NCBI GenBank assembly: GCA_964627035.1 | Contig: CAZVKN010000002.1 | Location: 11,206-75,205 of the forward strand | Reading direction: 5' to 3' | Length of the DNA stretch: 64,000 nucleotides | Source: an uncultured bacterium | GTDB lineage: Bacteria > Electryoneota > AABM5-125-24 > Hatepunaeales > Hatepunaeaceae | Shown here: positions 5,724-62,800 of the stretch, piece after piece | Layout: each line of letters begins with the position of its first letter | How positions within the stretch are numbered: position 1 is the first letter of the stretch | Notes under the pieces: generated by a model | Database searches by the model: none | Seen by the model: the letters and a program-made list of their open reading frames with translations, nothing else | Told to the model about the DNA's origin: nothing | Position numbers and translations under genes: made by a program

Positions 5724-6925
5724 TGAGCAGAAATTCACTGAAATTCCTGCAATTTTCCGATCTTCATCTCGACAGATCATTTTCATCAGGGAGGTTAAAG
5801 CTGCCGTTTGAGAAGGCGAGAGAACGGAAACATGAGTTAAAACAGGCGTTGGAAAGGGTTGTACAGCTATCTATTGAGCAAGAGGTTGAGCTAATTCTGC
5901 TTCCCGGTGATCTTTGGGAGGAGGATCAGCTTGACCATGATACAGTGCCCTTTGTGATGGAGCAGCTTGAAAGCATACAAGTGCCTGTTGTTATAGCCCC
6001 TGGTAACCACGATTATTATTCAATCAGCTCTCACTATGCGAATGAAATGGGGAAGTCCAGATTCAGCAGAGAATGGTCTGACAATGTTTACATCTTCCGG
6101 GAATATGACTGGCAGCATATCACGGTACCTGAGCTGGACGGGGTGTCAATCTCCGGATTGGCATGTGGACCTCAGGATAAAATCCATAACAGGCTTTTGC
6201 AGCATCCCATTCAGGTTCCTCCCGCTGACTTAAATATCTTGGTTCTGCACGGTTCGCGCGATGACCATGTCCCACCGGGCAAGAAGATAACACAGCCTTT
6301 CAGCGACCGTGAGCTGCTTGCACAGCCTTTTGATTACATTGCACTGGGGCATTATCATACACATGCAAACATCACAGACGATTCCGGATTGATCAGAGGC
6401 GCATACTCCGGGGCAACATGCTCACTGAGGCTCTCGGAATCCGGTGGACATGGTGTGCTGCTCGGAACAGTTCGAGCGGGTGGTGTTAAGCCGGAAGATT
6501 TGAAATTCCACGAAATTGACCACCGACAGATTCACAAACTGACAATTGATGTAAGTCGTCAGACTAATAGTCGGGCAGTTGAACAACTCATTCATGTGGA
6601 AATCGAAAATAATGAAATTAAACCGGAAGACATCTGTTACATAGAGCTGACCGGGTCGTACATGCACGGCAGGAACATACAGCTATTCGACAAATTGTCA
6701 CACGACCACTATCACCTCGAAATTGACATTTCAAAGATTCGTCCGCGATGGAATCCGGATGATGAAGGCTCAACGAACAGTGCAGAAATTGCGTTCAAAA
6801 AGGAGATGAAGCAGTTGATTGATGCTGCAGAGGCAAATGGTGATCTGAAGCAAGGTGAATCCTATATTAATTCATTAAATTATGGGCTTGATGCGTTGCA
6901 TAATATTAATATTGCGCCACCATAG
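5723..6925 (+). CDS. SbcD/Mre11-like calcineurin-type metallophosphoesterase
   Basis: LQFSDLHLD, LLPGDLWEE, APGNHDYY, LVLHGS and GHYHTH phosphoesterase motifs. ATGA overlap with the upstream ATPase gene. Confidence 0.8.
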   Translation: MSRNSLKFLQFSDLHLDRSFSSGRLKLPFEKARERKHELKQALERVVQLSIEQEVELILLPGDLWEEDQLDHDTVPFVMEQLESIQVPVVIAPGNHDYYSISSHYANEMGKSRFSREWSDNVYIFREYDWQHITVPELDGVSISGLACGPQDKIHNRLLQHPIQVPPADLNILVLHGSRDDHVPPGKKITQPFSDRELLAQPFDYIALGHYHTHANITDDSGLIRGAYSGATCSLRLSESGGHGVLLGTVRAGGVKPEDLKFHEIDHRQIHKLTIDVSRQTNSRAVEQLIHVEIENNEIKPEDICYIELTGSYMHGRNIQLFDKLSHDHYHLEIDISKIRPRWNPDDEGSTNSAEIAFKKEMKQLIDAAEANGDLKQGESYINSLNYGLDALHNINIAPP

Positions 6926-6928
6926 TGA

Positions 6929-7013
6929 ATCCCGCTGTCAGCCCGCCGTGGCTGACAGCATAACTTAAGTAACAATAACAAGTTGGCTGTCAGGTGCGGC
7001 GACCTGACAGCGG
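6929..7013. repeat. Double-hairpin repeat element, copy 1 (CCGCTGTCAGCCCGCCGTGGCTGACAGC ... GCTGTCAGGTGCGGCGACCTGACAGCGG)
   Basis: Near-identical copies at 38752-38835 and 45988-46070. Each has two perfect palindromic stems. Confidence 0.85.
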
Positions 7014-7080
7014 ATAATTCGCATATAGCACGCAACCTTAAATGAATGTAGAATAACGGTACTGCGGAGAAAGTATTAAA

Positions 7081-13218: not shown

Positions 13219-14043
13219 GGAACGGGATTCACAGCAGATGCAGCAGATTAGCAGATTTAGTTTGAGTTCAACCTTTAGGTTGTGATCGTAACATGCTAAA
13301 GAGTCTAACCATAATGTTCTTTAACATTTCAACTCAACAACTTACGCTTTCAAGTTTGGTTCACAAAAAGTAGTAATTGCGCCTTGAGTAATGTGAGAAT
13401 GTCAATATACCAAAGAAATAGGTTAAAATAGTCTCACATGCCGTTTTCAAGGCTGATATCACCCTGATGACTGTTATTTATACTTTGATGGTTCATCATT
13501 ATCTGTTCATTTATCTCTGGTTTGCGGATGTCTGATTTTTGCTGTTTGTAAATTTATAGATCGTAGTCCTACGACGAGTGGATGCCAGATACAAACTGTT
13601 TATCTGTGTACTTCTACTGTCTGTTCTGCGTGTGAATCTTCCGGTAATCATCTTAATCTCCTAATGGTTGTGTTTGTTACGTTCAATCATATAGACTACC
13701 CGAAGATTCAAAAAGTTACAACCTGCTCTAACTTTTCTCTTGATTCTTAAACATTGAAGCGTTGAGTTCTTATTGTGCTCATCATGAATTGTATTTAGGA
13801 TCTGTTTTACTGAATGGGATGAATATATGTGTGAACGTCTTACACTTCAAAAACACCTCAACCTGCTCGATTTCGGTGATACAGCTGCGCAATTTGGTTG
13901 TTAACCCTTTGTTCTTGTGAAAAAAATATTAAATTAATAGAACTGTTAGCAGGTGACAACCCTCCGCGGTTGACACAACGCCATCCACTGTCAAGCACGG
14001 AGGCATGACAGCGATAAACAACGCACGCACCGGAGGCTGAGAA

Positions 14044-24191: not shown

Positions 24192-24273
24192 TGCTTTGGA
24201 ATTACTCCGTTTTCAGACTATCTGAGAGTGTAAATTCTCCGCTGTCAGGTTGCCGTTCCAGACAACCAAAAGG

Positions 24274-24324
24274 GGAGCAGTGACATTCCTGTCACTGGAG
24301 GACGGACAGGAATGTCCGTCCTCC
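24274..24324. repeat. Tandem palindromic hairpins with a GACATTCCTGTC / GACAGGAATGTC core
   Basis: GGAGCAGTGACATTCCTGTCACTGGAG plus GACGGACAGGAATGTCCGTCCTCC. Family also at 40005, 51470, 53155, 57205, 57396 and 61744. Confidence 0.8.
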
Positions 24325-28849: not shown

Positions 28850-28960
28850 GTGATAAAGTAAGAAAGTGGGAAAGGAAGCAGGGAAGAATTTGATCAATGC
28901 TTCATCTTTCTTGTTTTTTACCTTCTCACCTTCTCACTTTCTTACTTACTTACTTACTTT
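28850..28960. repeat. Inverted-repeat element (AAAGTAAGAAAGTGGGAAAGGAAG ... CTTCTCACCTTCTCACTTTCTTACTTACTTACTT)
   Basis: Same GTAAGAAAGTGAGAAAG family as 677-754 and 49130-49160. Sits between two minus-strand kinase genes. Confidence 0.6.
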
Positions 28961-28991
28961 ATCAATGTTCGGATGCAATGATCGGTGCAGA

Positions 28992-36676: not shown

Positions 36677-37534
36677 ATGCGTTTGGAAAAGCTCCTGTTA
36701 ATCTTTGTTCTCTTGTCCATTCCCGCTTGTTCAATTGCAGAACAAGAGATAAATGCACCACCTTATCATTGTCGCATCACTCTGACCGACGGTTCGGAGT
36801 TGCTCGGTGAGATAACCGACGATGACAGCAGCAAGGTCTATTTTAAGACTCTGTCAGGTCTTGATATGGAAATTCAGCGAAGTCAGATCGAAAAAATAAC
36901 ACCACTGAAGGGAGCAATAGTCGAAGGGAAATTCCGTCGGATTGATCCGAATCGGAGCAGACTATTGTTCTCTGCGACAGCGAGACCATTGGAAGCAGGA
37001 AAAGGGTACTTCGCAGTGTATGAGCTTTTTTTCGCTACACTGGCAATGGGAATCGGGGATGTCGTCTCATTAGCCGGAGGTATCACCCTCTTCCCCGGTC
37101 CATTTCAAGTTTATCACTTCTCCCCGAAAGTTACATTCTTGAACGCAGACAATATCTGTCTCGCTGCAGGTGTTATGCATATGGGGATAACGGGGTTTGA
37201 CGAAGGTGATGGGTTCGGAATACTGTATGGCGTCAGCACATTCGGATCCGAAACCGCCGGAGTGACAGTTGGGTTTGGCTGGGCATATTCAGGGGAAGAG
37301 GCAGTCAATAAACCCACAGTGATGGTTGGGGGTGAAGTGCAGCTTTCCAATAGTTTCAAGCTAATTTCAGAGAACTGGTTTCCGCCCGGTGCAGAGTCTG
37401 TTTTGAGCATGTTCGGTATGCGATTTTTTGGCGATAAATTAGCTGCAGATCTCGGATTTATATTTCTGACCGAGATGAATGAAGGGTGGCCCTTCTTCCC
37501 TTGGGTAGGATTTGTATATAACTTTGGTAGATAA
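36677..37534 (+). CDS. Hypothetical lipoprotein/secreted protein
   Basis: Signal peptide MRLEKLLLIFVLLSIPACS (lipobox-like). No known domain. Confidence 0.45.
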   Translation: MRLEKLLLIFVLLSIPACSIAEQEINAPPYHCRITLTDGSELLGEITDDDSSKVYFKTLSGLDMEIQRSQIEKITPLKGAIVEGKFRRIDPNRSRLLFSATARPLEAGKGYFAVYELFFATLAMGIGDVVSLAGGITLFPGPFQVYHFSPKVTFLNADNICLAAGVMHMGITGFDEGDGFGILYGVSTFGSETAGVTVGFGWAYSGEEAVNKPTVMVGGEVQLSNSFKLISENWFPPGAESVLSMFGMRFFGDKLAADLGFIFLTEMNEGWPFFPWVGFVYNFGR

Positions 37535-37559
37535 CACCACATCAAGAATAACGATTACT

Positions 37560-38657
37560 ATGAAATTCAAAATTCAACTCCTCTTACTATTTGCATTACC
37601 GGTCGTCTTCACCGGCTGCATTGAGCATACCTACAATCTCCGGGTGATTCAGGATCATTTTAACCTGACCTACGAAGCGCGAGGTGATCGCATGGACCTG
37701 CAGGACGGTCGTGAGCTGTTCCCCGATTCACTGGTGTGGACGTCACACCGGCGCGAAGAACAGCAGGACGACGAGACAGTACATATCCTTGAAGCTTCTC
37801 TGCCGCCTCAACCGCTGGAGCGACTGAATCAGGTTTTGAACTGGAATCGCTCTACATCTGACACTGTTCATCTGACCCGAACTGCCGAATTGAAGAAGAA
37901 AGAGACTCTGTTCGGCAGCAATTGGAGCTTTGAGATGACCTTTTTTTCACGTCGGTTTGATGATTCCTACGGCAGTATCTGGGAACATGTGCCGGAGGAA
38001 TGCGGGGCGCTTGAAGATGATCAGGCAAAGGAAAACCTGACGGCAAAAGAAGTTGAACTGCTCGAAGACAAATTCGCACTCGGTATTCTGCAGTGGAACA
38101 AAGCCAGGTTTGAACGGCGGTTTGACAAGGTTTGGGCGAAGATCAAAGCGGTTCAACCCGACACGGTAATCTTTGACGATTCCATATTTGAAAAATCTAA
38201 AGTCGAATGGGAAAAACATCTTCACAAATTCCTCAGCAATCTTGAGATTAATGATCCGACTGTGGTTGATCTGAATTGGTGGGATGAAACCAGAACTATC
38301 TTCGTGGAAAAAATGACAGAAGCTACGGGTGATCAGTTAAAGAGCGAAATTGCCAACATCAGCGATGCTCTTGAAAATGAGTATCAGATAACAAAAGACC
38401 TCGAAGATGACCGTTTTAACTTTAAGGTTGACCTGCCGGGAAGCGTCACTGAGAGTAGCGGAACTGAGGAAAACGGTTGGCTGGTTTGGAGCTTCAACGG
38501 AAGGGATCTGCTGAACGAAAACCAGACATTGTCTGCAATTTCATTCAAGCCGTCCGTATGGAAGATCGGAGTCGCCGCATTTGTGGCTATTGTCCTGCTG
38601 AACTTCCTGAGACGGGGTTTTAGAGGCAGGAAAAAGGTGGAGCTGAAATTCCATTAG
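37560..38657 (+). CDS. Hypothetical lipoprotein with a C-terminal TM anchor
   Basis: MKFKIQLLLLFALPVVFTGC lipobox. C-terminal hydrophobic helix VAAFVAIVLLNFL. Confidence 0.45.
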   Translation: MKFKIQLLLLFALPVVFTGCIEHTYNLRVIQDHFNLTYEARGDRMDLQDGRELFPDSLVWTSHRREEQQDDETVHILEASLPPQPLERLNQVLNWNRSTSDTVHLTRTAELKKKETLFGSNWSFEMTFFSRRFDDSYGSIWEHVPEECGALEDDQAKENLTAKEVELLEDKFALGILQWNKARFERRFDKVWAKIKAVQPDTVIFDDSIFEKSKVEWEKHLHKFLSNLEINDPTVVDLNWWDETRTIFVEKMTEATGDQLKSEIANISDALENEYQITKDLEDDRFNFKVDLPGSVTESSGTEENGWLVWSFNGRDLLNENQTLSAISFKPSVWKIGVAAFVAIVLLNFLRRGFRGRKKVELKFH

Positions 38658-38751: not shown

Positions 38752-38835
38752 TCCGCTGTCAACCCGTTGTGGTTGACAGCACAACTTTTGTAATATCAAT
38801 ATGATAGCTGTCAGGTGCGGCGACCTGACAGCGGG
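38752..38835. repeat. Double-hairpin repeat element, copy 2
   Basis: CCGCTGTCAACCCGTTGTGGTTGACAGC ... GCTGTCAGGTGCGGCGACCTGACAGCGG. Confidence 0.85.
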
Positions 38836-38861: not shown

Positions 38862-39896
38862 TCATTTGGTGTACATTATCCTCTGAACCGCCGTCTCGCC
38901 TCCCCCATTTAGTTGCAGAAAATATGATCCTGCCGGGAAGTTTCCGGCACTGAAATTCATCTCATCAGAACCGTTACCGACTCCTGACTCGATTGTTGAC
39001 ATCAATCTGCCTGTTACATCAAGTAGTGAGATTGAGTACGGCTCACCTTTTTGTACCGAGAAGCTGAAGCGTGTCTGACTGTTGAACGGATTCGGGTAAG
39101 CCGGATTTAGCACAACTGCTGTCGGTATGTATCCCGATGGTGTCAATGTTGTCCGGACACCGAGAGGATCAGCGATCACAACCCGAAATGTGAAGTTGAA
39201 CCCGATGTCCTCTCCGAGGTCACCAAAATTCATATCAATCATCCGCGACCACTCTTCATCCTCGCCGTTCCAGAATATGCTGCGGTTGGTCGGATGCTCC
39301 TGCCCGTCATCAGAAATAATTGCCAGACTGTCTCTCTCATCATCGAGGATTGCGTTTACACCGACATGAAAATCAACCTCGTCATTAAATGAGATCTCCA
39401 GATCGGTAAAATCAATGACATTCCATACCGGGACTATGGTCACCGAATCATCCTGACCTGCTATCTCATCGCTAAACAGAATATCATCAAAAGCGATATT
39501 GATCGAGTCTATCAACTCGCCGGGGTAGCCCTCTTCCCTGTTCTGTTCTCCACTCTGCCAAACATGTACACTCATACCCGGCGTTCCCTGCTCACCGAAC
39601 AGGTAAAAGATGGGAATATGCGCCTCTACAATTGTAAATGGAGCGAACGGAGGTGTATAGCGGACGTTGAAATGGGAGTCCCCCAATTCATCAATGTCAG
39701 GAATTGTCCAAAAGAATGAGGTAATCATCGGATCACCATAGTACAGCGTTGTATCACCTTCATCTATTCCTGTGATTCTGTCGCTTTTCTCGCCTATGTA
39801 ATCTGGATTTTCGACCCGGCGGGCACTCCGCTCTGCCGAAAGTGCGGAAGTTATAAAAAGAGCCAATGATACAAGTATGATAAAAGTTGTTCGCAT
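38862..39896 (-). CDS. T9SS C-terminal-domain (Por_Secre_tail) secreted protein, hypothetical
   Basis: Signal peptide. C-terminus YPNPFNSQTRFSFSV...SYFLQLNGGGETAVQRIMYTK. Confidence 0.7.
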   Translation of the reverse strand: MRTTFIILVSLALFITSALSAERSARRVENPDYIGEKSDRITGIDEGDTTLYYGDPMITSFFWTIPDIDELGDSHFNVRYTPPFAPFTIVEAHIPIFYLFGEQGTPGMSVHVWQSGEQNREEGYPGELIDSINIAFDDILFSDEIAGQDDSVTIVPVWNVIDFTDLEISFNDEVDFHVGVNAILDDERDSLAIISDDGQEHPTNRSIFWNGEDEEWSRMIDMNFGDLGEDIGFNFTFRVVIADPLGVRTTLTPSGYIPTAVVLNPAYPNPFNSQTRFSFSVQKGEPYSISLLDVTGRLMSTIESGVGNGSDEMNFSAGNFPAGSYFLQLNGGGETAVQRIMYTK

Positions 39897-40004
39897 TGAG
39901 ATTACTCCGTTCAGATTTAATTCACGTTTCTACTAAATATAAAACGAAGTGAAGAACCTGTCAATAGAGGATAGATTCTTCACTTCGTTTATCTATACTG
40001 TCGG

Positions 40005-40055
40005 GGAGGATGGACATTCCTGTCCATCCTGCAGTGACAGGAATGTCACTGCTCC
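40005..40055. repeat. Tandem GACATTCCTGTC-core palindromic hairpins
   Basis: GGAGGATGGACATTCCTGTCCATCC-TGCAG-TGACAGGAATGTCACTGCTCC. Confidence 0.8.
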
Positions 40056-43782: not shown

Positions 43783-43839
43783 GATTAAACCTTTACCTTC
43801 GTCACACTGCTGCAACATGGGTAGATGGACTGAAAATTT

Positions 43840-43905
43840 GTCATTCCGAACTTGATCCGGAATCTCCTATATATCGTTGGAGATTCCTGCTTTCGCAGGA
43901 ATGAC
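43840..43905. repeat. Pair of ATTCCN-N8-NGGAAT palindromes (GTCATTCCGAACTTGATCCGGAATC; GATTCCTGCTTTCGCAGGAATGAC)
   Basis: Same architecture as the motifs at 51541, 54941, 55791, 57273 and 57324. Confidence 0.75.
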
Positions 43906-44025
43906 CGCTTGTTTCCTGCTGTCAACCGCGGCGGGTTGACAACGGAGACTCTGGCAATTGGGACATTAAGAGATACGAACCGTGCTCCTGCTATATTTGT
44001 TACGGTTCAGGGCAGATTTACGCCT

Positions 44026-45756
44026 CTAACCTATCTCAATCTCGTCACCCTTATACAGGAATCGCTTGACCTTGCGGGTTGAGGTTTTCTGGAACTCCTC
44101 TTCAACGATTCTAAACCGTCGTACCCGTTTGTAATCAGCTATGTCCTGCTGAGTTTCGGTGATTTCCCCCTTGATGAGTTCATAAATGTCCTTATCAGAC
44201 GGTTTCTGATCTAGCGCTTCATAGTGCAGATCAACCTGCTCATAATCAGGATTTATCAGTGCGATGATTTCCTCACCATACCCTGACTCGCGCGGTTTGC
44301 CGAGAACCAGCGATTCAGCGATGAATTTGCTCTGATTCAGGTAATGTTCCACTTCCTCAGGATAGACATTCTTCCCACCACCTGTCACCAGCATGTTCTT
44401 TTCTCGACCCATGATCTGCAAGTATCCATCGGGATGAATCATACCAAGATCACCTGTCATGAAAAAGCCATCTTTATCCATCACCTCATCGGTAGCTTCC
44501 TGATTCTGGTAGTAACCCATAAAAATGTTCGGTCCTTTTACGCATACTTCACCGATCCCCTGTTTGTTCTTGTTTATGAGCTTACATTCAACATCGGGAA
44601 TGTTAGGACCAACTGTTATATCGCGGGTTTTCCAAGGAGGGCTAAGATGTGTTATAGGGCTGGTTTCTGTTAGACCGTATCCCTGTAACATTGTAATACC
44701 GAGACGATTGAAGAATCTATATGTAGTCGGATCAAGCGGACCACCACCACTCGCAAATATCTTTACCGTACCAAATCCTGCTTTTTCACGCAGACCCTTG
44801 AATATCTTCTTGCCAAGTTTTAATCCAATCTTTTCAGCAGCAGAAACCACACCATACATAGTGTTGAAAGCTTTCTCTTTACCTTTTTTACGAATACCGC
44901 GAAGAATGCCTGCGTGCATTTTCTCGTATAGCAGCGGAACTCCAACCATCAAGGTTACTTCTGTATCCTTAATGCCACTGACAATATCACTGCTTTTCAA
45001 GCTCTTTGCATATGTGACCGACGCCCCACAATACAAGGGCAGCAAAAATCCACATGTCGCTTCAAAAACGTGGTGCATGGGTAGTACAGAAAGAAACGTG
45101 TCTTCTGTCCCAACTGGAAACACTCTCGAACCTTGAGCTACGTTTGAGATGATATTGCGCTGACTCAGCATGACCCCTTTGCTGTGACCGGTTGTACCTG
45201 ATGTGTATAGAATAGCAGCAAGTTCGTCCAATTCACGCTTGGGGAATTTCACCTCAATATCACGTCCCTGTTGAATGACATTTTCTAAGAGAATAGTGTC
45301 ATTATCATCAGGAACTGCGTCGAAACAGACAATCTTTTCTAAGGTATCAATCTTAGCCATTTCATTAATCACTGACAGATACTGTCCGGAAACAAACAGG
45401 ATTTTTGTGCCGGAATTTGCCAGTATATGTCGAATACCGTTAGGCGGCATAAGCCTGTCAACCGGAACCACAACCGCTCCGGATGTCTGGACTCCGAGAT
45501 AGCAAAACGCCCATTCCGGACGATTCTCTCCAAGAACGGCAACACGGTCGCCTCGTTTGATCTCTTGACCTATTAGCCAGCGAGCAATACTATGAGCATT
45601 GTCTTTCACTTCGTCAAAGGTCAAGACCTCATAATCGTCATTAGCCCATCTACGCATTGCGGGATGAGGACCAAAGTCTTTCGCACTACGCTCTGCGAGT
45701 TCGCTTAACGGGAAAAGCCCTCTATCAGGGCGAAGATGTGATTCGTAATCAGCCAC
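44026..45756 (-). CDS. Long-chain-fatty-acid--CoA ligase (AMP-dependent synthetase)
   Basis: AMP-binding motif ILYTSGTTGHSKGVMLS. GYGLTETSP. TGDLG...GYLQIMGREKNML. Confidence 0.8.
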   Translation of the reverse strand: MADYESHLRPDRGLFPLSELAERSAKDFGPHPAMRRWANDDYEVLTFDEVKDNAHSIARWLIGQEIKRGDRVAVLGENRPEWAFCYLGVQTSGAVVVPVDRLMPPNGIRHILANSGTKILFVSGQYLSVINEMAKIDTLEKIVCFDAVPDDNDTILLENVIQQGRDIEVKFPKRELDELAAILYTSGTTGHSKGVMLSQRNIISNVAQGSRVFPVGTEDTFLSVLPMHHVFEATCGFLLPLYCGASVTYAKSLKSSDIVSGIKDTEVTLMVGVPLLYEKMHAGILRGIRKKGKEKAFNTMYGVVSAAEKIGLKLGKKIFKGLREKAGFGTVKIFASGGGPLDPTTYRFFNRLGITMLQGYGLTETSPITHLSPPWKTRDITVGPNIPDVECKLINKNKQGIGEVCVKGPNIFMGYYQNQEATDEVMDKDGFFMTGDLGMIHPDGYLQIMGREKNMLVTGGGKNVYPEEVEHYLNQSKFIAESLVLGKPRESGYGEEIIALINPDYEQVDLHYEALDQKPSDKDIYELIKGEITETQQDIADYKRVRRFRIVEEEFQKTSTRKVKRFLYKGDEIEIG

Positions 45757-45887
45757 AGGAACCTCACTGTGTTAAAGGATAGTTAGATAAAGTAATACGG
45801 AGGAGCAAGATTGTCAAGAGTGTAAGGGCTATTACGGTTAACAGTAGTATATAGAACCCATCCGTACAATAAAATAGTGCTGTTTCG

Positions 45888-45955
45888 CCACGAAGTACAC
45901 GAAGATCACGAAGAAGAGAAGAGAAAAGGCTTCATGATCTTCGTGGTGAGAGTCT
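45888..45955. repeat. CACGAAG-heptamer palindrome (GCCACGAAGTACACGAAGATCACGAAG ... CTTCGTGG)
   Basis: Related copies at 49169-49240, 58822-58850 and 13137-13218. Confidence 0.7.
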
Positions 45956-45987
45956 TCACTTCAGAGTCTGTCCGATAATGCGGGTAA

Positions 45988-46070
45988 CCGCTGTCAACCC
46001 GCTGCGGTTGACAGCCTAACTTATGGAATATCAATTAGGTGACTGTCAGGTGCGGCGACCTGACAGCGGA
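45988..46070. repeat. Double-hairpin repeat element, copy 3
   Basis: CCGCTGTCAACCCGCTGCGGTTGACAGC ... CTGTCAGGTGCGGCGACCTGACAGCGG. Confidence 0.85.
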
Positions 46071-46089
46071 CTATTGGTATTACAGGACA

Positions 46090-46145
46090 GACTCTTCTGC
46101 GTGTCTTCCTCGCACACAGGCTGAAGCCTGAACTCTGAACACAGA
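46090..46145. repeat. About 45-bp direct repeat (copy A) of GCGTGT..CACAGGCTGAAGCCTGAACTCTGAACACA; partner at 62745-62800
   Basis: The 29-bp core is 27/29 identical between the two copies, in the same orientation, about 16.7 kb apart. Confidence 0.7.
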
Positions 46146-46320
46146 ATAGCGAGGAAACTTAAAATAGTCCTCCCAATCTGGCTAACTCACTTGCAAACTT
46201 GCTAACTTTTTCACTTTATTACTTCTTACTACTGTGACTATGTGAATAAACTTTGAAAATTTTGATATTGGTAACCATATATTTTGGTAAAAGCGAATCA
46301 CTAACTTATGGAGAAGAAAC

Positions 46321-49089
46321 ATGTTACGAGCAACTATCTATGTACTAATCGCACTTTTTCTGACCATCGGCTGCCAGGATGACGACAACCCCGTCGCGCC
46401 GCCTGTGCCGAAGTATGACATTCAAATCACCAACCTGCCGACATCAATCACCTCCCCCGAAGGCGTTAGCCATGAAGTGATCTTTCAGGTCACTGTCATC
46501 AACAACGCAACCAACGAAGTGGTCGAAGGAGCAGCCGTCGCTCTTGCCGTTCCACTCGGTCAGGGATCAATCACACCGCAAACCATGCCCACCGATGTGC
46601 ACGGAACCGTCGAAGCGATGTACAGTTTCGACATGCCGTCCGGTAAATCAACCACACCTATATTTATCACGGCGGAAAAGCAGAGCACTATCGCTATCAT
46701 TGTCCTTGACGGCACGACACGACCTGTTGAGCTGCTGCTGACTGCGGATGAGACGCTGCTGTTTCCTGAAGAGAATGAATCTGTCGAAGTCAACCTGACC
46801 GCTGCGGTGACTGACGAGCGCGGAATGGGGATTGCCGGAGTGAAGCTTTTCTTCGAGCTGATTGAAACGGAAGAAGACAGCACTTACGGAGCGTTAACCC
46901 CGATATCAACGACTGATAAAGAAGGTCTGGCTCAATCCACCTTCCGTTCGATGGGCGGACACGGAACCATACACATCCGCTGTTCGGTGGATGAAGGAGA
47001 AGACTTTCTCGATGTCAAGGATGAGGTGGCGATCAGGATCGTTGAACCCTTGCAGGGAGGAATACTATTTCTCAATGCAAGTGAGAACTACATCTATGCC
47101 GATAACGGTGTAACAGATGCCATTGTTCGCGCGGTATTAAAGGACAGGTCGAATCAAGCCATTGAAGGGGCAGAGATTATCTTCTCATCCAATAACAACG
47201 GCGCGATTAGCTCACCGCATACCACCGATTCACTGGGAATCGCACTCTCAGTATTCACCGACATCGGTATCCCTTCGATGAACGCACTCGGAGAAAGGGA
47301 ACCGTGCACGGTAACAGCCTACTATTACCGCCTTGGTTTGGCAGAATCCATCGAAATTGATATCCGTCCACAGGAACATGTGGACAACATCGTGCTGGCA
47401 GCCGGAAAAGCTACGATGCATGCCGGCAGTCGTGATACAACATGGGTCAGAGCTACGTGTTTCCTTGATCGTTCTCGAACTCAGTTAGCCCCTGAGGGTA
47501 CGATGGTGTACTTCGAGCAGGATAACTGGATGGGGTCATTCACGCAATCACAAGTTCCGGTAGGACGCACCGGTACTGCACAAACCGCATATGTTGCAGG
47601 TACTCAAGTTGGGCAAGCCATAATTAGAGCTATTGTAGTGAATGAAGATTGGGAGTATGTTCACAGCAATGAAGTAATCATTGACCTGATCCCCGGTGCG
47701 CCTGCAAGCATTTATGTTCAATCCAACCCGTCGGTTCTGCGTATCGGTGAAGCGGGTGAGCAGTCAATGATTCTCGCTTCTGTCGTTGATTCATTCGGCA
47801 ACCCGGTCAGGGACGGTTCGGTTCTCGTTCAGTTCTCAACAACTCTCGGAACGGTTGATCCACCGTCAACTCCGACAGATTCGGGTCATGCAATCGCATT
47901 CCTTCGTCCTGGTGTCGAGGCAGGAGTAGCTATTGTCCGTGCAACCGTTTTGGGATTAGAACCTGCTGAAACGGCGGTGTCATTCATCGCCGGAGGAGGG
48001 AGTTCTATTAATCTCGGTGTTGATGATTTACAGATTCCAATTGGTGGATTCACCAGAATCCATGCTACTGTCCGCGATGCTAACGGTAACCTCATTGAAG
48101 TACCGACTAAGGTTGTTATTGTTCTGCTGACAAATGATGTGCCACCGGAAGCTGGCAACATAAATGGGAATGATCCATTCTACTGCGATACCGTTTACAC
48201 CTCAAATGGAATAGCAACATTTACATTCAATGCAGGAACCCGAATAGGACCACAACTGATCCGAATATATACTCTTGATGAGGATGGAAATCCAACCGGA
48301 GTTCGTGCAACCATTAGTACTCTGATGGTCGTCGGCGGACCTCCGGCTATTCTTTCACTTGGCTGGGAAAATGACGTTCGTGATGCCGGAGGAGGAAGCT
48401 GGATACTTCCGGTATCAGCACATATAACGGATCAATACCGTAACCCCGCGAGGGATGAAATCGTCGTAAATTTCAGAGTTGATCCGGTCGGTTCTATCGA
48501 AAGTCATGCATTTACAAACGGTGGACGGGCTGTTGTTGATCTGACATATCACAGCGAGCATGTCTTTGAGGAAGTTACAGTCACCGCTTATCTTCTGACC
48601 GAGGACGACTCACTCGGACAGACGTTGACCTTCCAGTTGCCTTTCCAAGGTGGCGAGCTTGAGCTGCATGTTGATCCGAACAACTGGATGTTTGACAGAG
48701 ACGAGCCGGATAACATTTGTGATATCCGGGTGTGGGCGATCCTGCATGATGGACACGGAGTTTTGATCAACAATGCACCGATACTGTTCACATCTATTCG
48801 AGGTAAGTTTTGGTATGACAATCGCGCCGGAGATCAGGTGGACTTTGAGATCTTTGAACCTCGACCTGTCAGACGACACACCGGACCTGTCAATGACGGT
48901 GGCAATCCCAACGAGCGACAAAATGACGATGATCCGGACGGTCATGCGGTAGTATGGCTGAGAGGAATAATGGACGACTTCTTCCTCGATCCGTTCAGTA
49001 TGGAGGTGACAGTCCAGATCGAGGCGAATGTAGAGGGTTACGACGATGTATTCGCCAATCCTGCATTTGTGGTGATGACGAGGCATTGA
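46321..49089 (+). CDS. Large lipoprotein with repeated bacterial Ig-like (Big) domains
   Basis: Lipobox MLRATIYVLIALFLTIGC. Repeated about 90-aa beta-rich segments (GxxTVTA..., AIVRATV). Confidence 0.55.
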   Translation: MLRATIYVLIALFLTIGCQDDDNPVAPPVPKYDIQITNLPTSITSPEGVSHEVIFQVTVINNATNEVVEGAAVALAVPLGQGSITPQTMPTDVHGTVEAMYSFDMPSGKSTTPIFITAEKQSTIAIIVLDGTTRPVELLLTADETLLFPEENESVEVNLTAAVTDERGMGIAGVKLFFELIETEEDSTYGALTPISTTDKEGLAQSTFRSMGGHGTIHIRCSVDEGEDFLDVKDEVAIRIVEPLQGGILFLNASENYIYADNGVTDAIVRAVLKDRSNQAIEGAEIIFSSNNNGAISSPHTTDSLGIALSVFTDIGIPSMNALGEREPCTVTAYYYRLGLAESIEIDIRPQEHVDNIVLAAGKATMHAGSRDTTWVRATCFLDRSRTQLAPEGTMVYFEQDNWMGSFTQSQVPVGRTGTAQTAYVAGTQVGQAIIRAIVVNEDWEYVHSNEVIIDLIPGAPASIYVQSNPSVLRIGEAGEQSMILASVVDSFGNPVRDGSVLVQFSTTLGTVDPPSTPTDSGHAIAFLRPGVEAGVAIVRATVLGLEPAETAVSFIAGGGSSINLGVDDLQIPIGGFTRIHATVRDANGNLIEVPTKVVIVLLTNDVPPEAGNINGNDPFYCDTVYTSNGIATFTFNAGTRIGPQLIRIYTLDEDGNPTGVRATISTLMVVGGPPAILSLGWENDVRDAGGGSWILPVSAHITDQYRNPARDEIVVNFRVDPVGSIESHAFTNGGRAVVDLTYHSEHVFEEVTVTAYLLTEDDSLGQTLTFQLPFQGGELELHVDPNNWMFDRDEPDNICDIRVWAILHDGHGVLINNAPILFTSIRGKFWYDNRAGDQVDFEIFEPRPVRRHTGPVNDGGNPNERQNDDDPDGHAVVWLRGIMDDFFLDPFSMEVTVQIEANVEGYDDVFANPAFVVMTRH

Positions 49090-49125: not shown

Positions 49126-49168
49126 AGGGAGCAAGGGAGAAGATGAGAAAGTAAGAAAATCATTTATC

Positions 49169-49240
49169 ACCACGAAGTTCACGAAGCGCACGAAGAAGAA
49201 ACAGATTAAACACTTCGTGTCCTTCGTGCTCTTCGTGGTT
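49169..49240. repeat. CACGAAG-heptamer long palindrome (CCACGAAGTTCACGAAGCGCACGAAGAAG ... CTTCGTGTCCTTCGTGCTCTTCGTGG)
   Basis: Three heptamer units per arm. Confidence 0.8.
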
Positions 49241-51428: not shown

Positions 51429-51608
51429 GAAATTCACAACAGATGAAACGGATTAAGCAGATTAAAGCGGGGATGGCGGACATTCTTGTCCGTCTGCATG
51501 GACAGGAATGAGTTCTTTGATTTATTCAGAAAACCTTCGCGTCATTCCCACGAAGGTGGGAATCCAGTCCTACATTGACTTTCTGGATTCCCGTTTACAC
51601 GAGAATGA
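51429..51608. repeat. Composite modular repeat: post-stop motif, GACATTCTTGTC palindrome, AATGAGTTCTTTGATTTAT, then GTCATTCCC-N8-GGGAATCCAG
   Basis: Each module is also present at 53155-53200, 57205-57350 and 54941-54970. Confidence 0.8.
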
Positions 51609-51778
51609 CGAAAGATATCAAACTACTTAATATTTCAGTGAACTCATCCCCGTCCTCTCTTGCAGGAGCAACAATATCCCAACTCACCCGTCAAAAGAAC
51701 GCATGAGACAAGAGTTGCGCTTGTCATCTGTTATTATTAAATTTATACTCTGCTACAATCTGTTACTGTTTTCAACAC

Positions 51779-52318: not shown

Positions 52319-52355
52319 CATCCTTCTTCCTTTCCCACGTTCTAACATTCTAACT

Positions 52356-54911: not shown

Positions 54912-54940
54912 TGATATATCTCCTTGAATAGTTGTATTCC

Positions 54941-55085
54941 GTCATTCCCGCTCAGGCGGGAATCCAGTTATATCGTGTGGCACGGGTTACTTGTTACCTG
55001 TGTATCATTACTTAAAGAAACATGGGCAACGAGTAGCCCATGCCACACGGATTCCATCTGTTTAATTCGTTCAATCCGTTGTGAA
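54941..55085. repeat. GTCATTCCC-N8-GGGAATCCAG, then two-hairpin element B, then post-stop motif (minus sense)
   Basis: GTCATTCCCGCTCAGGCGGGAATCCAG. GTGTGGCACGGGTTACTTGTTACCTGTG...CATGGGCAACGAGTAGCCCATGCCACAC. ...TTCAATCCGTTGTGAATTC overlaps the stop of the 55071 gene. Confidence 0.75.
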
Positions 55086-55769: not shown

Positions 55770-55790
55770 CTGTTTGTCTCCTTTTAAATT

Positions 55791-55857
55791 GTCATTCCTG
55801 CGAAGGCAGGAATCCAGTCTTAAATCCGTTTAATCCGTTCAATTCGTTGTGAATCTC
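55791..55857. repeat. GTCATTCCTGCGAAGGCAGGAATCCAG plus post-stop motif (minus sense)
   Basis: Directly abuts the stop of the 55858 gene. Confidence 0.75.
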
Positions 55858-57204: not shown

Positions 57205-57470
57205 GGGGAGCAGCGACATTCCTGTCGCTGTAGCGGGAACAGGAATGAGTTCTTTGATTTATCATCTATTTTGTCATTCTGGTGAAAGCCAGAATCCAGT
57301 AAATAATTGGAATCACTGGATTCCCGCCTGCGCGGGAATGACGTGAATGGGCAAATTTATGAATATTTCAAAGGTCTCATTCTTGTCCATGTTTTGCCGA
57401 CAGGAATGTCGGCACTCCCCGATACATTTGTTTAATCAGTTCAATCCGTTGTGAATCCGGCACGGGAATC
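57205..57470. repeat. Large composite of modular repeats (GACATTCCTGTC palindromes x2, AATGAGTTCTTTGATTTAT, two ATTCYS-N8-GGAAT motifs, post-stop motif)
   Basis: All modules are shared with the elements at 51429, 53155 and 54941. Confidence 0.8.
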
Positions 57471-60259: not shown

Positions 60260-60640
60260 TTGTTCCGAAGAAAAGTCAAATAATTCCTTTTTTTACTTGA
60301 CAACGGTATTATTTATTATTACGTTATAATCGTATCAAGCAACACCAAGAGGCACCAGCCTTTTGGAATCGAGCTGTCCGTGAGGTTTCAAATGATCACG
60401 GATTATCGTGCGGGACGGAATTTAACCGTCCCGCACTTTTTTTGCCGTTCAGGATCCCGATGCTTCTCTATGCATTCAATCCCGATCCTTCACAGCATCT
60501 GTTCTTCAGGGGAAGCTCAGAGGCTTATTAAAATTTTTCCTCTATATGTCCCCTGAAGAACAGTTTCCTGCGTCAACCCACCCCGGTCAACACAACTCTT
60601 TAACTGCGGTGTCAACACGCCGCGGTTGACACATTTATGC

Positions 60641-61693
60641 TTAGTAATCCGACAGCAACGCAGCGTCATCCACCATGATGGTGTAAACCGACTCCTTCGA
60701 CACCACCGCCTGCTCCAGCTTCTGATTGATCACCTTGTCAACATCAATCATCAGCGGTTGCGTGACCGATTCACGCACCGCAAACCGACTGTCGAGCCCG
60801 ATGACTTTGGTAGCGGTCGCATTCGGAGCAATCACCAGTCTTGCATTCACCGGCAGGAACGAATGGTAGTTACCAGTCTTGGTAAACAGCTCATTTTCCC
60901 GCCACGCCTGAGCATCCTGGAACTGTGACAGATTAATGATGGTCTCGACATCATTCTTGGTGGCGATGATGTGTGTCATCCGTGCCGGAACGTCAAAAGA
61001 CATTGCCAGATGCACCAGATCACTATACGCAAACGTCCCGGCGTTGCCGTCGAATACATCGCTCGCTCCATCCGACGTGCCGTCACCGTCGAGCAGGATG
61101 TTATACATCTCGTCAATCTCGTCATAAGCCATCTGTGCACCGATCCACCACAGGAACACCCGAAATTCGGTCAGCTTCTGATTGCGGACGATCCGATATG
61201 AGAAGTCAAACTCACGACCTCGGTCAATGATGTTCGCCTCCTTGTCCCGATACAGCAACTCAACACGCGGATATGCCGATCCTGCGCTCTTCTTCGCCAG
61301 TGACTCTTTTGCCTTGGTCGTCTTGACATAGATCGGACGAACGGTCGGACCGCTTTCCAGCGAAACGGATGCTACCAGATCTGTCGGATTCTGCACCATT
61401 TTGTAACCACGCTGGATTTCGCGCAGCACGTACTCCGGCAGCAGTATCAATCCACCACCGACGAAAAACTGCTCCATGCTGATGGACTTTGATCCTTCCG
61501 CGAGAATCCCGTTCAGCATGAGCTGTCTTTCAAACGCATCGAGTCTGCTGTCCGATTCGCTTGGATCAATCTGCTCCAGCAATTCACTGAACGTCAGATT
61601 CTGCTCCTGTGCTTCAGCATACAGTGACAGATTCCCTGCTCGGGAATGCTGCACAATCAGCTCGCCCAGTTTATTTGCTTCACTCATAATCAT
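60641..61693 (-). CDS. Putative phage major capsid-like protein
   Basis: 350 aa, in the size range of HK97-fold capsid proteins. No signal peptide. Followed by a palindromic terminator-like repeat. Confidence 0.35.
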   Translation of the reverse strand: MIMSEANKLGELIVQHSRAGNLSLYAEAQEQNLTFSELLEQIDPSESDSRLDAFERQLMLNGILAEGSKSISMEQFFVGGGLILLPEYVLREIQRGYKMVQNPTDLVASVSLESGPTVRPIYVKTTKAKESLAKKSAGSAYPRVELLYRDKEANIIDRGREFDFSYRIVRNQKLTEFRVFLWWIGAQMAYDEIDEMYNILLDGDGTSDGASDVFDGNAGTFAYSDLVHLAMSFDVPARMTHIIATKNDVETIINLSQFQDAQAWRENELFTKTGNYHSFLPVNARLVIAPNATATKVIGLDSRFAVRESVTQPLMIDVDKVINQKLEQAVVSKESVYTIMVDDAALLSDY

Positions 61694-61743
61694 TCCTTAT
61701 TGTTTAGTTGTTTACTTGTCCTCGCGCAAAGTCACCTTCTTTG

Positions 61744-61795
61744 GGAGGACGGACATTCCTGTCCGTCCCGCAGCGACAGGAATGTCGCTGCTCCT
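61744..61795. repeat. Tandem GACATTCCTGTC-core palindromic hairpins
   Basis: GGAGGACGGACATTCCTGTCCGTCC-CGCAG-CGACAGGAATGTCGCTGCTCC. Confidence 0.8.
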
Positions 61796-62558: not shown

Positions 62559-62744
62559 ATTTTCTCCAATTGCACTGTTTGATTGTCAATGTACGGAATT
62601 AATTAATTAAAGTCAAGCATATTGCCGTATAATTGCAAAGATAATGCAAATAATTTGTGATTATCAAACAGCATCCAATTGTAATCATGGTAAAGGCAAT
62701 ATTATTATATATTATCCCCATACTTGGGACAGTTTAGAGTTCAC

Positions 62745-62800
62745 GCTTCAGCGTGTTTGCTTCGGGCACAGCCTGAAACCTGAACTCTGAACACATCGTC
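62745..62800. repeat. About 45-bp direct repeat (copy B) GCGTGTTTGCTTCGGGCACAGCCTGAAACCTGAACTCTGAACACA
   Basis: Matches 46090-46145. Confidence 0.7.

Follow-up and report, generated by a model that had tools for sequence, protein, structure and literature searches.

What is the structured element that recurs between the genes of this stretch of DNA, and what could have placed it there? The stretch, 64,000 nt of contig CAZVKN010000002.1 (assembly GCA_964627035.1, positions 11,206 to 75,205) and hereafter called the window, comes from an uncultured marine bacterium of the Fibrobacterota–Chlorobiota–Bacteroidota (FCB) group. It carries three copies of a double hairpin for which the initial annotation had offered several explanations: a miniature inverted-repeat transposable element (MITE), a repetitive extragenic palindromic (REP)-like insulator or terminator, or a small RNA. 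Our analysis makes it quite likely that the element is a non-autonomous REP doublet, of the type described as REPINs (REP doublets forming hairpins) or bacterial interspersed mosaic elements (BIMEs), in a family mobilised by REP-associated tyrosine transposases (RAYTs), and hence a new family of a known kind in a little-studied lineage. The direct observations behind this reading concern the anatomy of the element, its dispersal and intergenic location in the window, the covariation of its stems, RAYT genes flanked by the same core in other contigs, and its presence or absence at matching sites in relatives.

The intact element is about 82 nt long and consists of CC, a unit A, an AT-rich linker of 26 or 27 nt, a unit B and GG. 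Intact doublets lie on the plus strand at 6932–7013, 38753–38834 and 45988–46069, where the initial annotation had placed double hairpins (6929–7013, 38752–38835 and 45988–46070) separated by an AT-rich linker of about 25 nt; they are present and read as it described, each with a 26-nt linker. The unit is a 26-nt palindrome made of GCTGTCA, three variable stem bases, a 6-nt loop, three complementary bases and TGACAGC, so that the window copies have a 10-bp stem and a 6-nt loop, in line with the stem-loop palindromes of about 20–40 nt that define REP units. Unit A (hairpin 1) has the stem top RCC/GGY and the loop CGYYGY: GCC/GGC with CGCCGT in doublet 1 (6934–6959), ACC/GGT with CGTTGT in doublet 2 (38755–38780) and ACC/GGT with CGCTGC in doublet 3 (45990–46015). 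Unit B (hairpin 2; 6986–7011, 38807–38832 and 46042–46067), which we write CTGTCAGGT...ACCTGACAG, combines the same foot with the top GGT/ACC and the loop GCGGCG. Since this loop reads as the A-type loop CGCCGC on the opposite strand and the two units share a foot, unit B is an inverted relative of unit A, and therefore the whole element is an inverted repeat with the termini CCGCTGTCA...TGACAGCGG. This relation between the two hairpins was missing from the initial annotation, which had called hairpin 2 invariant; CTGTCAGGT-GCGGCG-ACCTGACAGCGG is indeed the same in all three copies, but unit B of doublet 3 begins with A instead of G.

The hairpin-2 pattern GCTGTCAGGTGCGGCGACCTGACAGC has exactly three matches in the window, the doublets themselves, and none in 100 shuffles; the hairpin-1 pattern, for which no match is expected in shuffles, finds the three doublets and a single A-type unit on the minus strand at 43918–43943 (GCTGTCAACCGCGGCGGGTTGACAAC on the plus strand). 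Three partial hairpins had also been reported. Those at 13961–13990 and 60591–60640 proved to be pieces of decayed doublets, both on the plus strand, at 13952–14012 (GGTGACAACCCTCCGCGGTTGACACA, a linker of 9–10 nt, CACTGTCAAGCACGGAGGCATGACAGCG) and 60569–60633 (TGCGTCAACCCACCCCGGTCAACACA, a 13-nt linker, GGTGTCAACACGCCGCGGTTGACACA), while the one at 43918–43945 is the singlet and not a doublet. The window thus holds three intact doublets, two decayed doublets and one singlet, all of them intergenic, and about 2 kb before the window begins the same contig has one more intact doublet, the fourth (2264–2338 of locus L043). Outside the CC and GG ends the flanks are weakly conserved. Doublet 3 and the upstream doublet, two of the four intact ones, are enclosed by an outer palindrome, AGAGTCTGTCYGATAAT (at about 2232–2250 and 2350–2370 of L043); around doublet 3 it forms an outer inverted repeat spanning 45963–46095, with AGAGTCTGTCCGATAAT at 45963–45979 and its imperfect reverse complement at 46079–46095. 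Either the element has a longer form that includes this outer palindrome, or the palindrome is a target favoured for insertion. Nesting of REP dimers in longer palindromes has been described by Di Nocera et al. (PMC3733652).

Folded as single-stranded DNA, copies 1 and 3 are best drawn as one long hairpin with two internal loops at the mismatched tops, and copy 2 as two local hairpins; all folds are far more stable than those of shuffled sequences (z-scores −4.9 to −10). Among 54 distinct units of the family, the three free positions at the top of the stem form Watson–Crick pairs in 85% of cases, whereas shuffling the partners gives 38%, and at most 53% in 1000 shuffles; at least nine different fully paired tops occur. 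In 22 heterodimers of equal length, 95.5% of cells are paired under the two-hairpin structure, a level that none of 500 shuffles attained, and compensatory changes appear in the top of unit B, whereas under the long-hairpin structure the top positions are unpaired in about 90% of sequences. The A and B loops are mutually complementary in 18–20 of these 22 heterodimers. The doublet thus behaves as one unit of two related, deliberately non-identical palindromes. The initial annotation had argued that the structure is selected from a compensatory difference in hairpin 1, GCC/GGC in copy 1 and ACC/GGT in copies 2 and 3. That difference is real and represents a single event among three copies; both forms occur in other genomes (L038, L059), so it may reflect two sub-lineages rather than mutation within this genome. 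Selection on the structure is borne out at the level of the family, by the pairing frequencies given above, and what selects the stem is likely a transposase that recognises the hairpin on single-stranded DNA rather than an RNA function.

To follow the family beyond the window we scanned one genome per species with the 7-bp foot of both units fixed and the inner 12 nt free. This foot-only scan returned 42 loci with the same architecture in other genomes, mainly metagenome-assembled genomes (MAGs) of the FCB group. About two dozen belong to Candidatus Hatepunaea meridiana (phylum Electryoneota, FCB group), 14 are near-identical 77-nt homodimers in the uncultured MAG 'binchicken_co100_320', and two come from a Caldithrix MAG. 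The locus nearest to the window copies, in a Calditrichaeota MAG, has the A unit of copy 1 and a 26-nt linker with AATATCA. Single matches were found in a Gemmatimonadota MAG and in a Bacillus-like genome, the latter probably an unrelated direct repeat. Linkers, 26–27 nt in the window, range from 15 to 40 nt elsewhere, and 33 dimers are arranged head-to-head and two tail-to-tail; REPINs are defined as two inverted units less than about 130 bp apart, and a predominance of the head-to-head arrangement has also been reported for REP dimers (PMC3733652). Three doublets of Ca. Hatepunaea meridiana lie in frame inside long open reading frames (ORFs; L017 3848–3912, L030 4960–5024 and L032 2547–2611): one adds about 22 residues to a B12-dependent methionine synthase, in the linker that joins its B12-binding domain to its activation domain, and the others lie in a family-2 glycosyltransferase and an FG-GAP protein.

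The link to a transposase comes from metagenome contigs, in which the exact 24-nt hairpin-2 core CTGTCAGGTCGCCGCACCTGACAG was found at nine loci only, none from the window organism. At one of them, L060, a 159-aa ORF stands between two inverted units, at 8 nt from one and 15 nt from the other; one of these units is the exact core and the other has the compensated foot CTGTCG...CGACAG. The product of this ORF scores 84.5 bits on the NCBIfam model NF047646 'REP-associated tyrosine transposase' (cut-off 80) and just under the cut-off of Pfam Y1_Tnp (21.3 vs 23), carries the histidine–hydrophobic–histidine (HUH) motif as SHLH together with YVHNNPVKAGL, and matches E. coli TnpA-REP (PDB 4ER8) with E=6.6e-9. 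Homologues at 47–63% identity are encoded at L067 (P0002), L068/L069 (P0003), L066 (P0008) and L070 (P0013), and all four genes are flanked on both sides, at a distance of 2–40 nt, by 24-nt units of the form NYGTCR-GGY-loop-RCC-YGACRN, with a CGCCGC-like loop upstream and its complement downstream; the unit downstream of P0003 is again the exact hairpin-2 core. More distant homologues (P0007, P0021 and P0009; L062, L075–L077) have related hairpins with GTCG/CGAC feet. The His-x-His, Trp and catalytic Tyr residues are invariant in the RAYT alignment, and in a profile search the clade turned up widely among FCB lineages (Melioribacteraceae, Ignavibacteria, Zixibacteria, Cloacimonetes and Bacteroidota), its proteins often being labelled RayT or REP-associated tyrosine transposase in the source records. 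A RAYT gene flanked by a dispersed palindrome is the defining signature of REP–RAYT systems (PMC3116915, PMC5581495, PMC6006769). Among the options that had been listed for the element the REP-like one is upheld: each unit is a REP, two of them make up a REP doublet, and the hairpin-2 core flanks RAYT genes elsewhere. The first 42 family loci, searched by motif regex and then by tblastn, yielded no RAYT, and in L013 and L028 the ORFs that lie between adjacent units do not encode transposases. P0007, P0021, P0009 and P0253 are RAYTs of other organisms. The gene for P0253, in Caldithrix sp. MAG CAYHEC01 (L078 9756–10700), lies just downstream of dnaA-dnaN-gyrB, between arrays of another REP, which carries the GTAG tag (GTAGTGCNGTCGCAC...GTGCGAC). 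Doublets of the GCTGTCAACC type occur in this MAG too, in direct orientation (L005, L019).

Evidence that the doublets move comes from two relatives (L071 and L073) that keep the gene order around copy 1 and whose Metallophos proteins are 70% and 57% identical to that of the window. In these the gap between the Metallophos and DUF502 genes is 44 and 27 bp, against 155 bp in the window, and beyond the copy-1 insert the sequences align in a conserved block downstream, ATGAATGT-GAATAACGG-ACTG-GGAGA. The site of the upstream doublet in L043 likewise measures 61 bp in the 70% relative (L071) and 203 bp in the window organism, although the two are too diverged to fix the insertion borders. The relatives have no units in 21 and 17.6 kb, whereas the window organism has five in its syntenic 21 kb. 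Since the syntenic relatives have short gaps without units, the doublet is a lineage-specific insertion. Relative to the empty site of L071, one of the two comparisons, a 5-bp direct repeat, CATAG (6921–6925 and 7022–7026), stands at the borders of copy 1; the insertion chemistry of IS200-type (HUH) elements does not predict it. Copies 2 and 3 have no direct repeat at the equivalent positions, for which reason we treat the CATAG repeat as unexplained; it is possibly due to chance.

The CATAG repeat and the inverted termini are also what one would expect of a classical MITE, that is, an internally deleted derivative of a DDE-type insertion sequence (IS) that moved by means of terminal inverted repeats and left target-site duplications. 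The initial annotation had listed a MITE among its options, a plain one if the copies carried terminal inverted repeats and target-site duplications. Although the inverted termini are present, the two empty sites and the other copies gave no consistent target-site duplication. The would-be terminal repeats are palindromes in their own right and are found as singlets too, the genes flanked by the unit encode HUH/Y1 RAYTs and not DDE transposases, no parent IS was seen, and covariation within the stem of each unit is not expected of terminal repeats bound by protein as double-stranded DNA. We therefore consider this origin quite improbable.

A RAYT-mobilised REP doublet, which we prefer, has points against it besides the CATAG repeat. 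No RAYT gene was found by motif regex or tblastn in the window, nor in about 4 kb of extra sequence from the organism, and none of the listed RAYT homologues could be tied to it. The units that flank RAYT genes do not match the doublets in every respect: the doublets of the window and of Hatepunaea have CCG on the 5' side of the foot, whereas the RAYT-flanking units have GTG followed by C, T or G, only some of them reading GTGG; and the A-type unit with the top ACC/GGT was not seen beside any RAYT that we examined. The GT[AG]G guide of the GTAG-tagged superfamily is absent, the window copies having CCG before the foot. Finally, the three intact copies align over 98 nt in a repeat search at only 76–83% identity, with most differences in the linker, so that there is no sign of a recent burst.

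The position of the copies relative to genes raises a further possibility, namely that the double hairpin is selected for a function in RNA, as an intrinsic terminator or insulator, as a stabiliser of mRNA 3' ends or as a small RNA. The initial annotation had placed the copies immediately 3' of genes or upstream of fadD, and this agrees with what we find. Doublet 1 starts 6 nt past the stop codon (6923–6925) of the Metallophos/SbcD-like gene, in a series of genes on the same strand, and ends 67 nt before the DUF502 gene (start 7081). Doublet 2 lies between the convergent genes 37512–38657 (+) and 38862–39896 (−), and doublet 3 between the divergent genes 44026–45756 (−), an AMP-binding (FadD-like) gene, and 46321–49089 (+), 232 nt upstream of the former. 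The decayed doublet at 13952–14012 ends about 30 nt upstream of a glutamine synthetase gene, the singlet at 43918–43943 lies between two minus-strand genes, and the decayed doublet at 60569–60633 lies just 3' of the minus-strand gene 60641–61693. The 350-aa product of that gene scores 26.9 bits on Pfam Phage_capsid_4 (cut-off 27) and may be a prophage remnant or an encapsulin-like shell protein. Given the same-strand series around copy 1 and the convergent genes around copy 2, both copies are probably transcribed. The stability of the hairpins also speaks for a role in RNA, as does the fact that E. coli REPs stabilise the mRNA upstream of them (cited in PMC5317091 and PMC3733652).

Other observations make selection for an RNA function unlikely. 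Scans of the copies for terminators and promoters brought out no conserved feature and no conserved T-tract: none follows either hairpin in copies 1 and 3, and the two weak terminator calls at copy 2 use stems that do not belong to the family, so that the proposal of a terminator finds no support. The sequence TTGACA in the 3' arm of hairpin 1 resembles a −35 box, and the only −10-like hexamer downstream of it, TATCAA at a spacing of 15 nt, was not called by the scan. A search of Rfam gave no match at the gathering thresholds and, at E≤1, nothing on the doublets. The genes on either side of copy 3 are divergent, and in related genomes the A-to-B order in same-direction gene contexts runs with transcription in five cases and against it in seven, an unbiased orientation. 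Tandem, convergent and divergent contexts, together with the absence of an Rfam match, likewise speak against the suggested small RNA. Some doublets lie in frame inside genes, and the element is absent from syntenic relatives. A mobile REP doublet could nevertheless stabilise mRNA as a by-product, and a side effect on neighbouring genes, such as a protected 3' end for the mRNA upstream of copy 1, is possible by analogy with the REPs of E. coli.

The element could also be read as a set of sites for a host DNA-binding protein, kept for chromosome organisation and bound by a nucleoid protein, by gyrase or integration host factor (IHF) as proposed for E. coli BIMEs, or by a palindrome-binding regulator. 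In favour of such sites are the perfect palindrome of the foot, CTGTCA...TGACAG, a hairpin 2 that does not vary in the window organism, and AATATCAAT, a partly conserved piece of the linker in copies 2 and 3, in the copy of L043 and in L038. This piece may resemble the first half of the IHF consensus, but the second half of the consensus is lacking. The sites are absent from close syntenic relatives, compensated variation in the top of the stem argues for the formation of hairpins over readout of double-stranded sequence, and the association with RAYTs suffices as an explanation. We regard maintenance by a host protein as very improbable, although binding of such a protein as a side effect is possible by analogy with E. 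coli REPs.

A model that fits a RAYT-mobilised doublet starts from the two 26-nt REP units, inverted head-to-head, which would fold into hairpins wherever the DNA becomes single-stranded, for instance in the template of the lagging strand. The foot of the hairpin and the adjacent bases would then be recognised by a RAYT, an enzyme of the HUH/Y1 type akin to the TnpA of IS200, which would cut there and rejoin the ends, and doublets would be copied or moved to new, mostly intergenic sites without duplication of the target. Stem pairing would be kept across the family because only copies that form hairpins would stay substrates. Cleavage of single-stranded DNA is proposed here by homology with E. 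coli TnpA-REP (PDB 4ER8), and on the same homology a RAYT of the L060 clade may be acting, or may formerly have acted, in the window organism.

A bolder hypothesis, which we put forward tentatively and think rather doubtful, is that these doublets are a true population of REPINs, linked to a clade of RAYTs that falls outside Bertels Groups 2 and 3. Such a clade, which by its motifs resembles Group 5 or subclass 2.6, would occur in Calditrichota-like lineages, in Electryoneota and in lineages near them. It would recognise a YGTC foot that is base-paired and flanked by GTG or CCG, in place of GTAG, and its element would be an obligate heterodimer with complementary loops and non-complementary tops. 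REPINs have been reported only for RAYTs of Groups 2 and 3 (PMC5581495; 10.1101/2021.07.10.451892), so that this hypothesis, if true, would contradict the claim that only those groups maintain REPINs and would supply a second, independent system for the co-evolution of REPINs and RAYTs. Work on REPs, REPINs and RAYTs has been done almost wholly in Proteobacteria, and our data point to the same system in deep-branching, uncultured bacteria of the FCB group. RAYTs of Group 5 or subclass 2.6 are typical of Bacteroidota and their FCB relatives. The family described here differs by its recognition foot and by the absence of the GTAG tag, and belongs to a class hardly described in this lineage. For annotation, these hairpins are best masked as repeats and not recorded as small RNAs or terminators, and the repeats explain contig breaks around RAYT genes. 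The hairpin-2 core beside RAYT genes offers a pair of substrate and enzyme for studying the recognition of REPs that lack GTAG.

Several other repeat families share the window with the doublets. A second, unrelated REP family of the dRS3/CGTC-1 type comprises seven units of the form YGTC-ATTCYNNN-loop-NNNRGAAT, at 43839–43863, 51540–51563, 51587–51610 (−), 54940–54963, 55790–55813, 57272–57295 and 57320–57343 (−), in which CGTCATTCCCGCGCAGGCGGGAAT is the same string as the core of the dRS3 REPIN of Neisseria (10.1101/2021.07.10.451892). A sub-threshold Rfam match to the Francisella small RNA FtrB at 43814–43925 (−; 37.3 bits against a gathering threshold of 66, E=0.02) covers a dRS3-like inverted pair and the start of the A-type singlet, and is probably an artefact of these palindromic repeats. 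A third double-hairpin family, GGGAGG-[..GACATTCCTGTC..]-CTGCAG-[..GACAGGAATGTC..]-CTCC, is found at 24273–24324, 40004–40055, 57206–57257 and 61743–61794; it is built on GACA/TGTC and has constant cores and stem extensions that vary and remain paired. There are also two intergenic repeats of two copies each, at 46091–46143 and 62743–62795 (83% identity) and at 45870–45917 and 49152–49199 (77% identity), one of which directly adjoins doublet 3 and the other of which has reiterated CACGAAG motifs. CT-rich reiterated motifs (..CTTTCTTACT.. / ..CTTCTCAC..) lie in intergenic positions upstream of genes at 719–754, 28911–28962, 46188–46239 and 52320–52355.

Comparison with known systems sets the doublets apart from several other palindromic elements. 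Integron attC sites and CRISPR repeats do not fit on direct reading, since the units form no arrays, show no R/L box pattern and stand in inverted pairs instead of in direct register. The ends of IS200/IS605 elements and palindrome-associated transposable elements (PATEs) have two hairpins on the same strand in direct orientation, whereas the loops here are reverse complements of each other. The palindrome described in the Caldithrix abyssi genome paper is a different one of 18 nt, AACCGTTnnAACGGTT. Neisseria dRS3/NIME elements, which are CGTC-1 REPs, are likewise small palindromes in inverted pairs and are linked to RAYTs in that genus (10.1101/2021.07.10.451892), but sequence and geometry differ, and the dRS3-like units of the window are a separate family.

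Parallels are also found among the tagged REPs catalogued by Di Nocera et al. (2013; PMC3733652). GTAG- and CGTC-tagged REPs likewise form dimers that are mostly head-to-head, as well as heterodimers, have conserved spacers, include occasional in-frame intragenic copies and become nested, and the YGTC (TGTC or CGTC) in the foot of our units recalls the CGTC tag. In CGTC-tagged REPs, however, that motif is an unpaired terminal tag, whereas here it is paired within the stem; the stem and loop measure 10 bp and 6 nt here and 8–9 bp and 4–5 nt in the CGTC families, and the stem lacks the AT start and the element the CCA tail. By the descriptions given in that work (PMC3733652), the doublets fit none of the four CGTC families and do not match the GTAG families either.

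The BIMEs of E. coli and their transposase TnpA-REP (PDB 4ER8; PMC3479197) provide a further parallel. They too are inverted heterodimers of two unit types, in their case the Y and Z palindromic units, which alternate in orientation, with distinct stem tops and characteristic linkers, located between cistrons or at the 3' ends of genes, and served by a transposase homologous to that of L060 in which the HUH motif and the catalytic Tyr are conserved. The unit sequences are unrelated, the E. coli stem is longer and bulged where ours is a perfect 10-bp stem with a 6-nt loop, and the 5' flank is GTAG there and CCG or GTG here.

Finally, the doublets resemble the REPINs and their RAYTs described by Bertels and Rainey (2011; PMC3116915, PMC3337134) in their organisation and depart from them in some respects. 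The host belongs to the FCB group and is not a proteobacterium, the doublets of the window are heterodimers, with no pairing between the stem tops of the two units, and there is no GTAG tag. In a comparison made at the level of motifs only, the [SN]H[LIV]H, WQ and Y[IV]H[NQ]NP motifs of the associated RAYTs fit subclass 2.6 (or 2.4) of Quentin et al., the counterpart of Bertels Group 5 (or 4), more closely than they fit Groups 2 and 3. As in REPINs, inverted palindromic pairs with a short spacer lie at several extragenic sites in the window, singlets and decayed doublets stand beside intact ones, the pair can form one long hairpin or two local ones, and a single HUH/Y1 RAYT gene is flanked by the units (L060, L066, L067, L068/L069 and L070).

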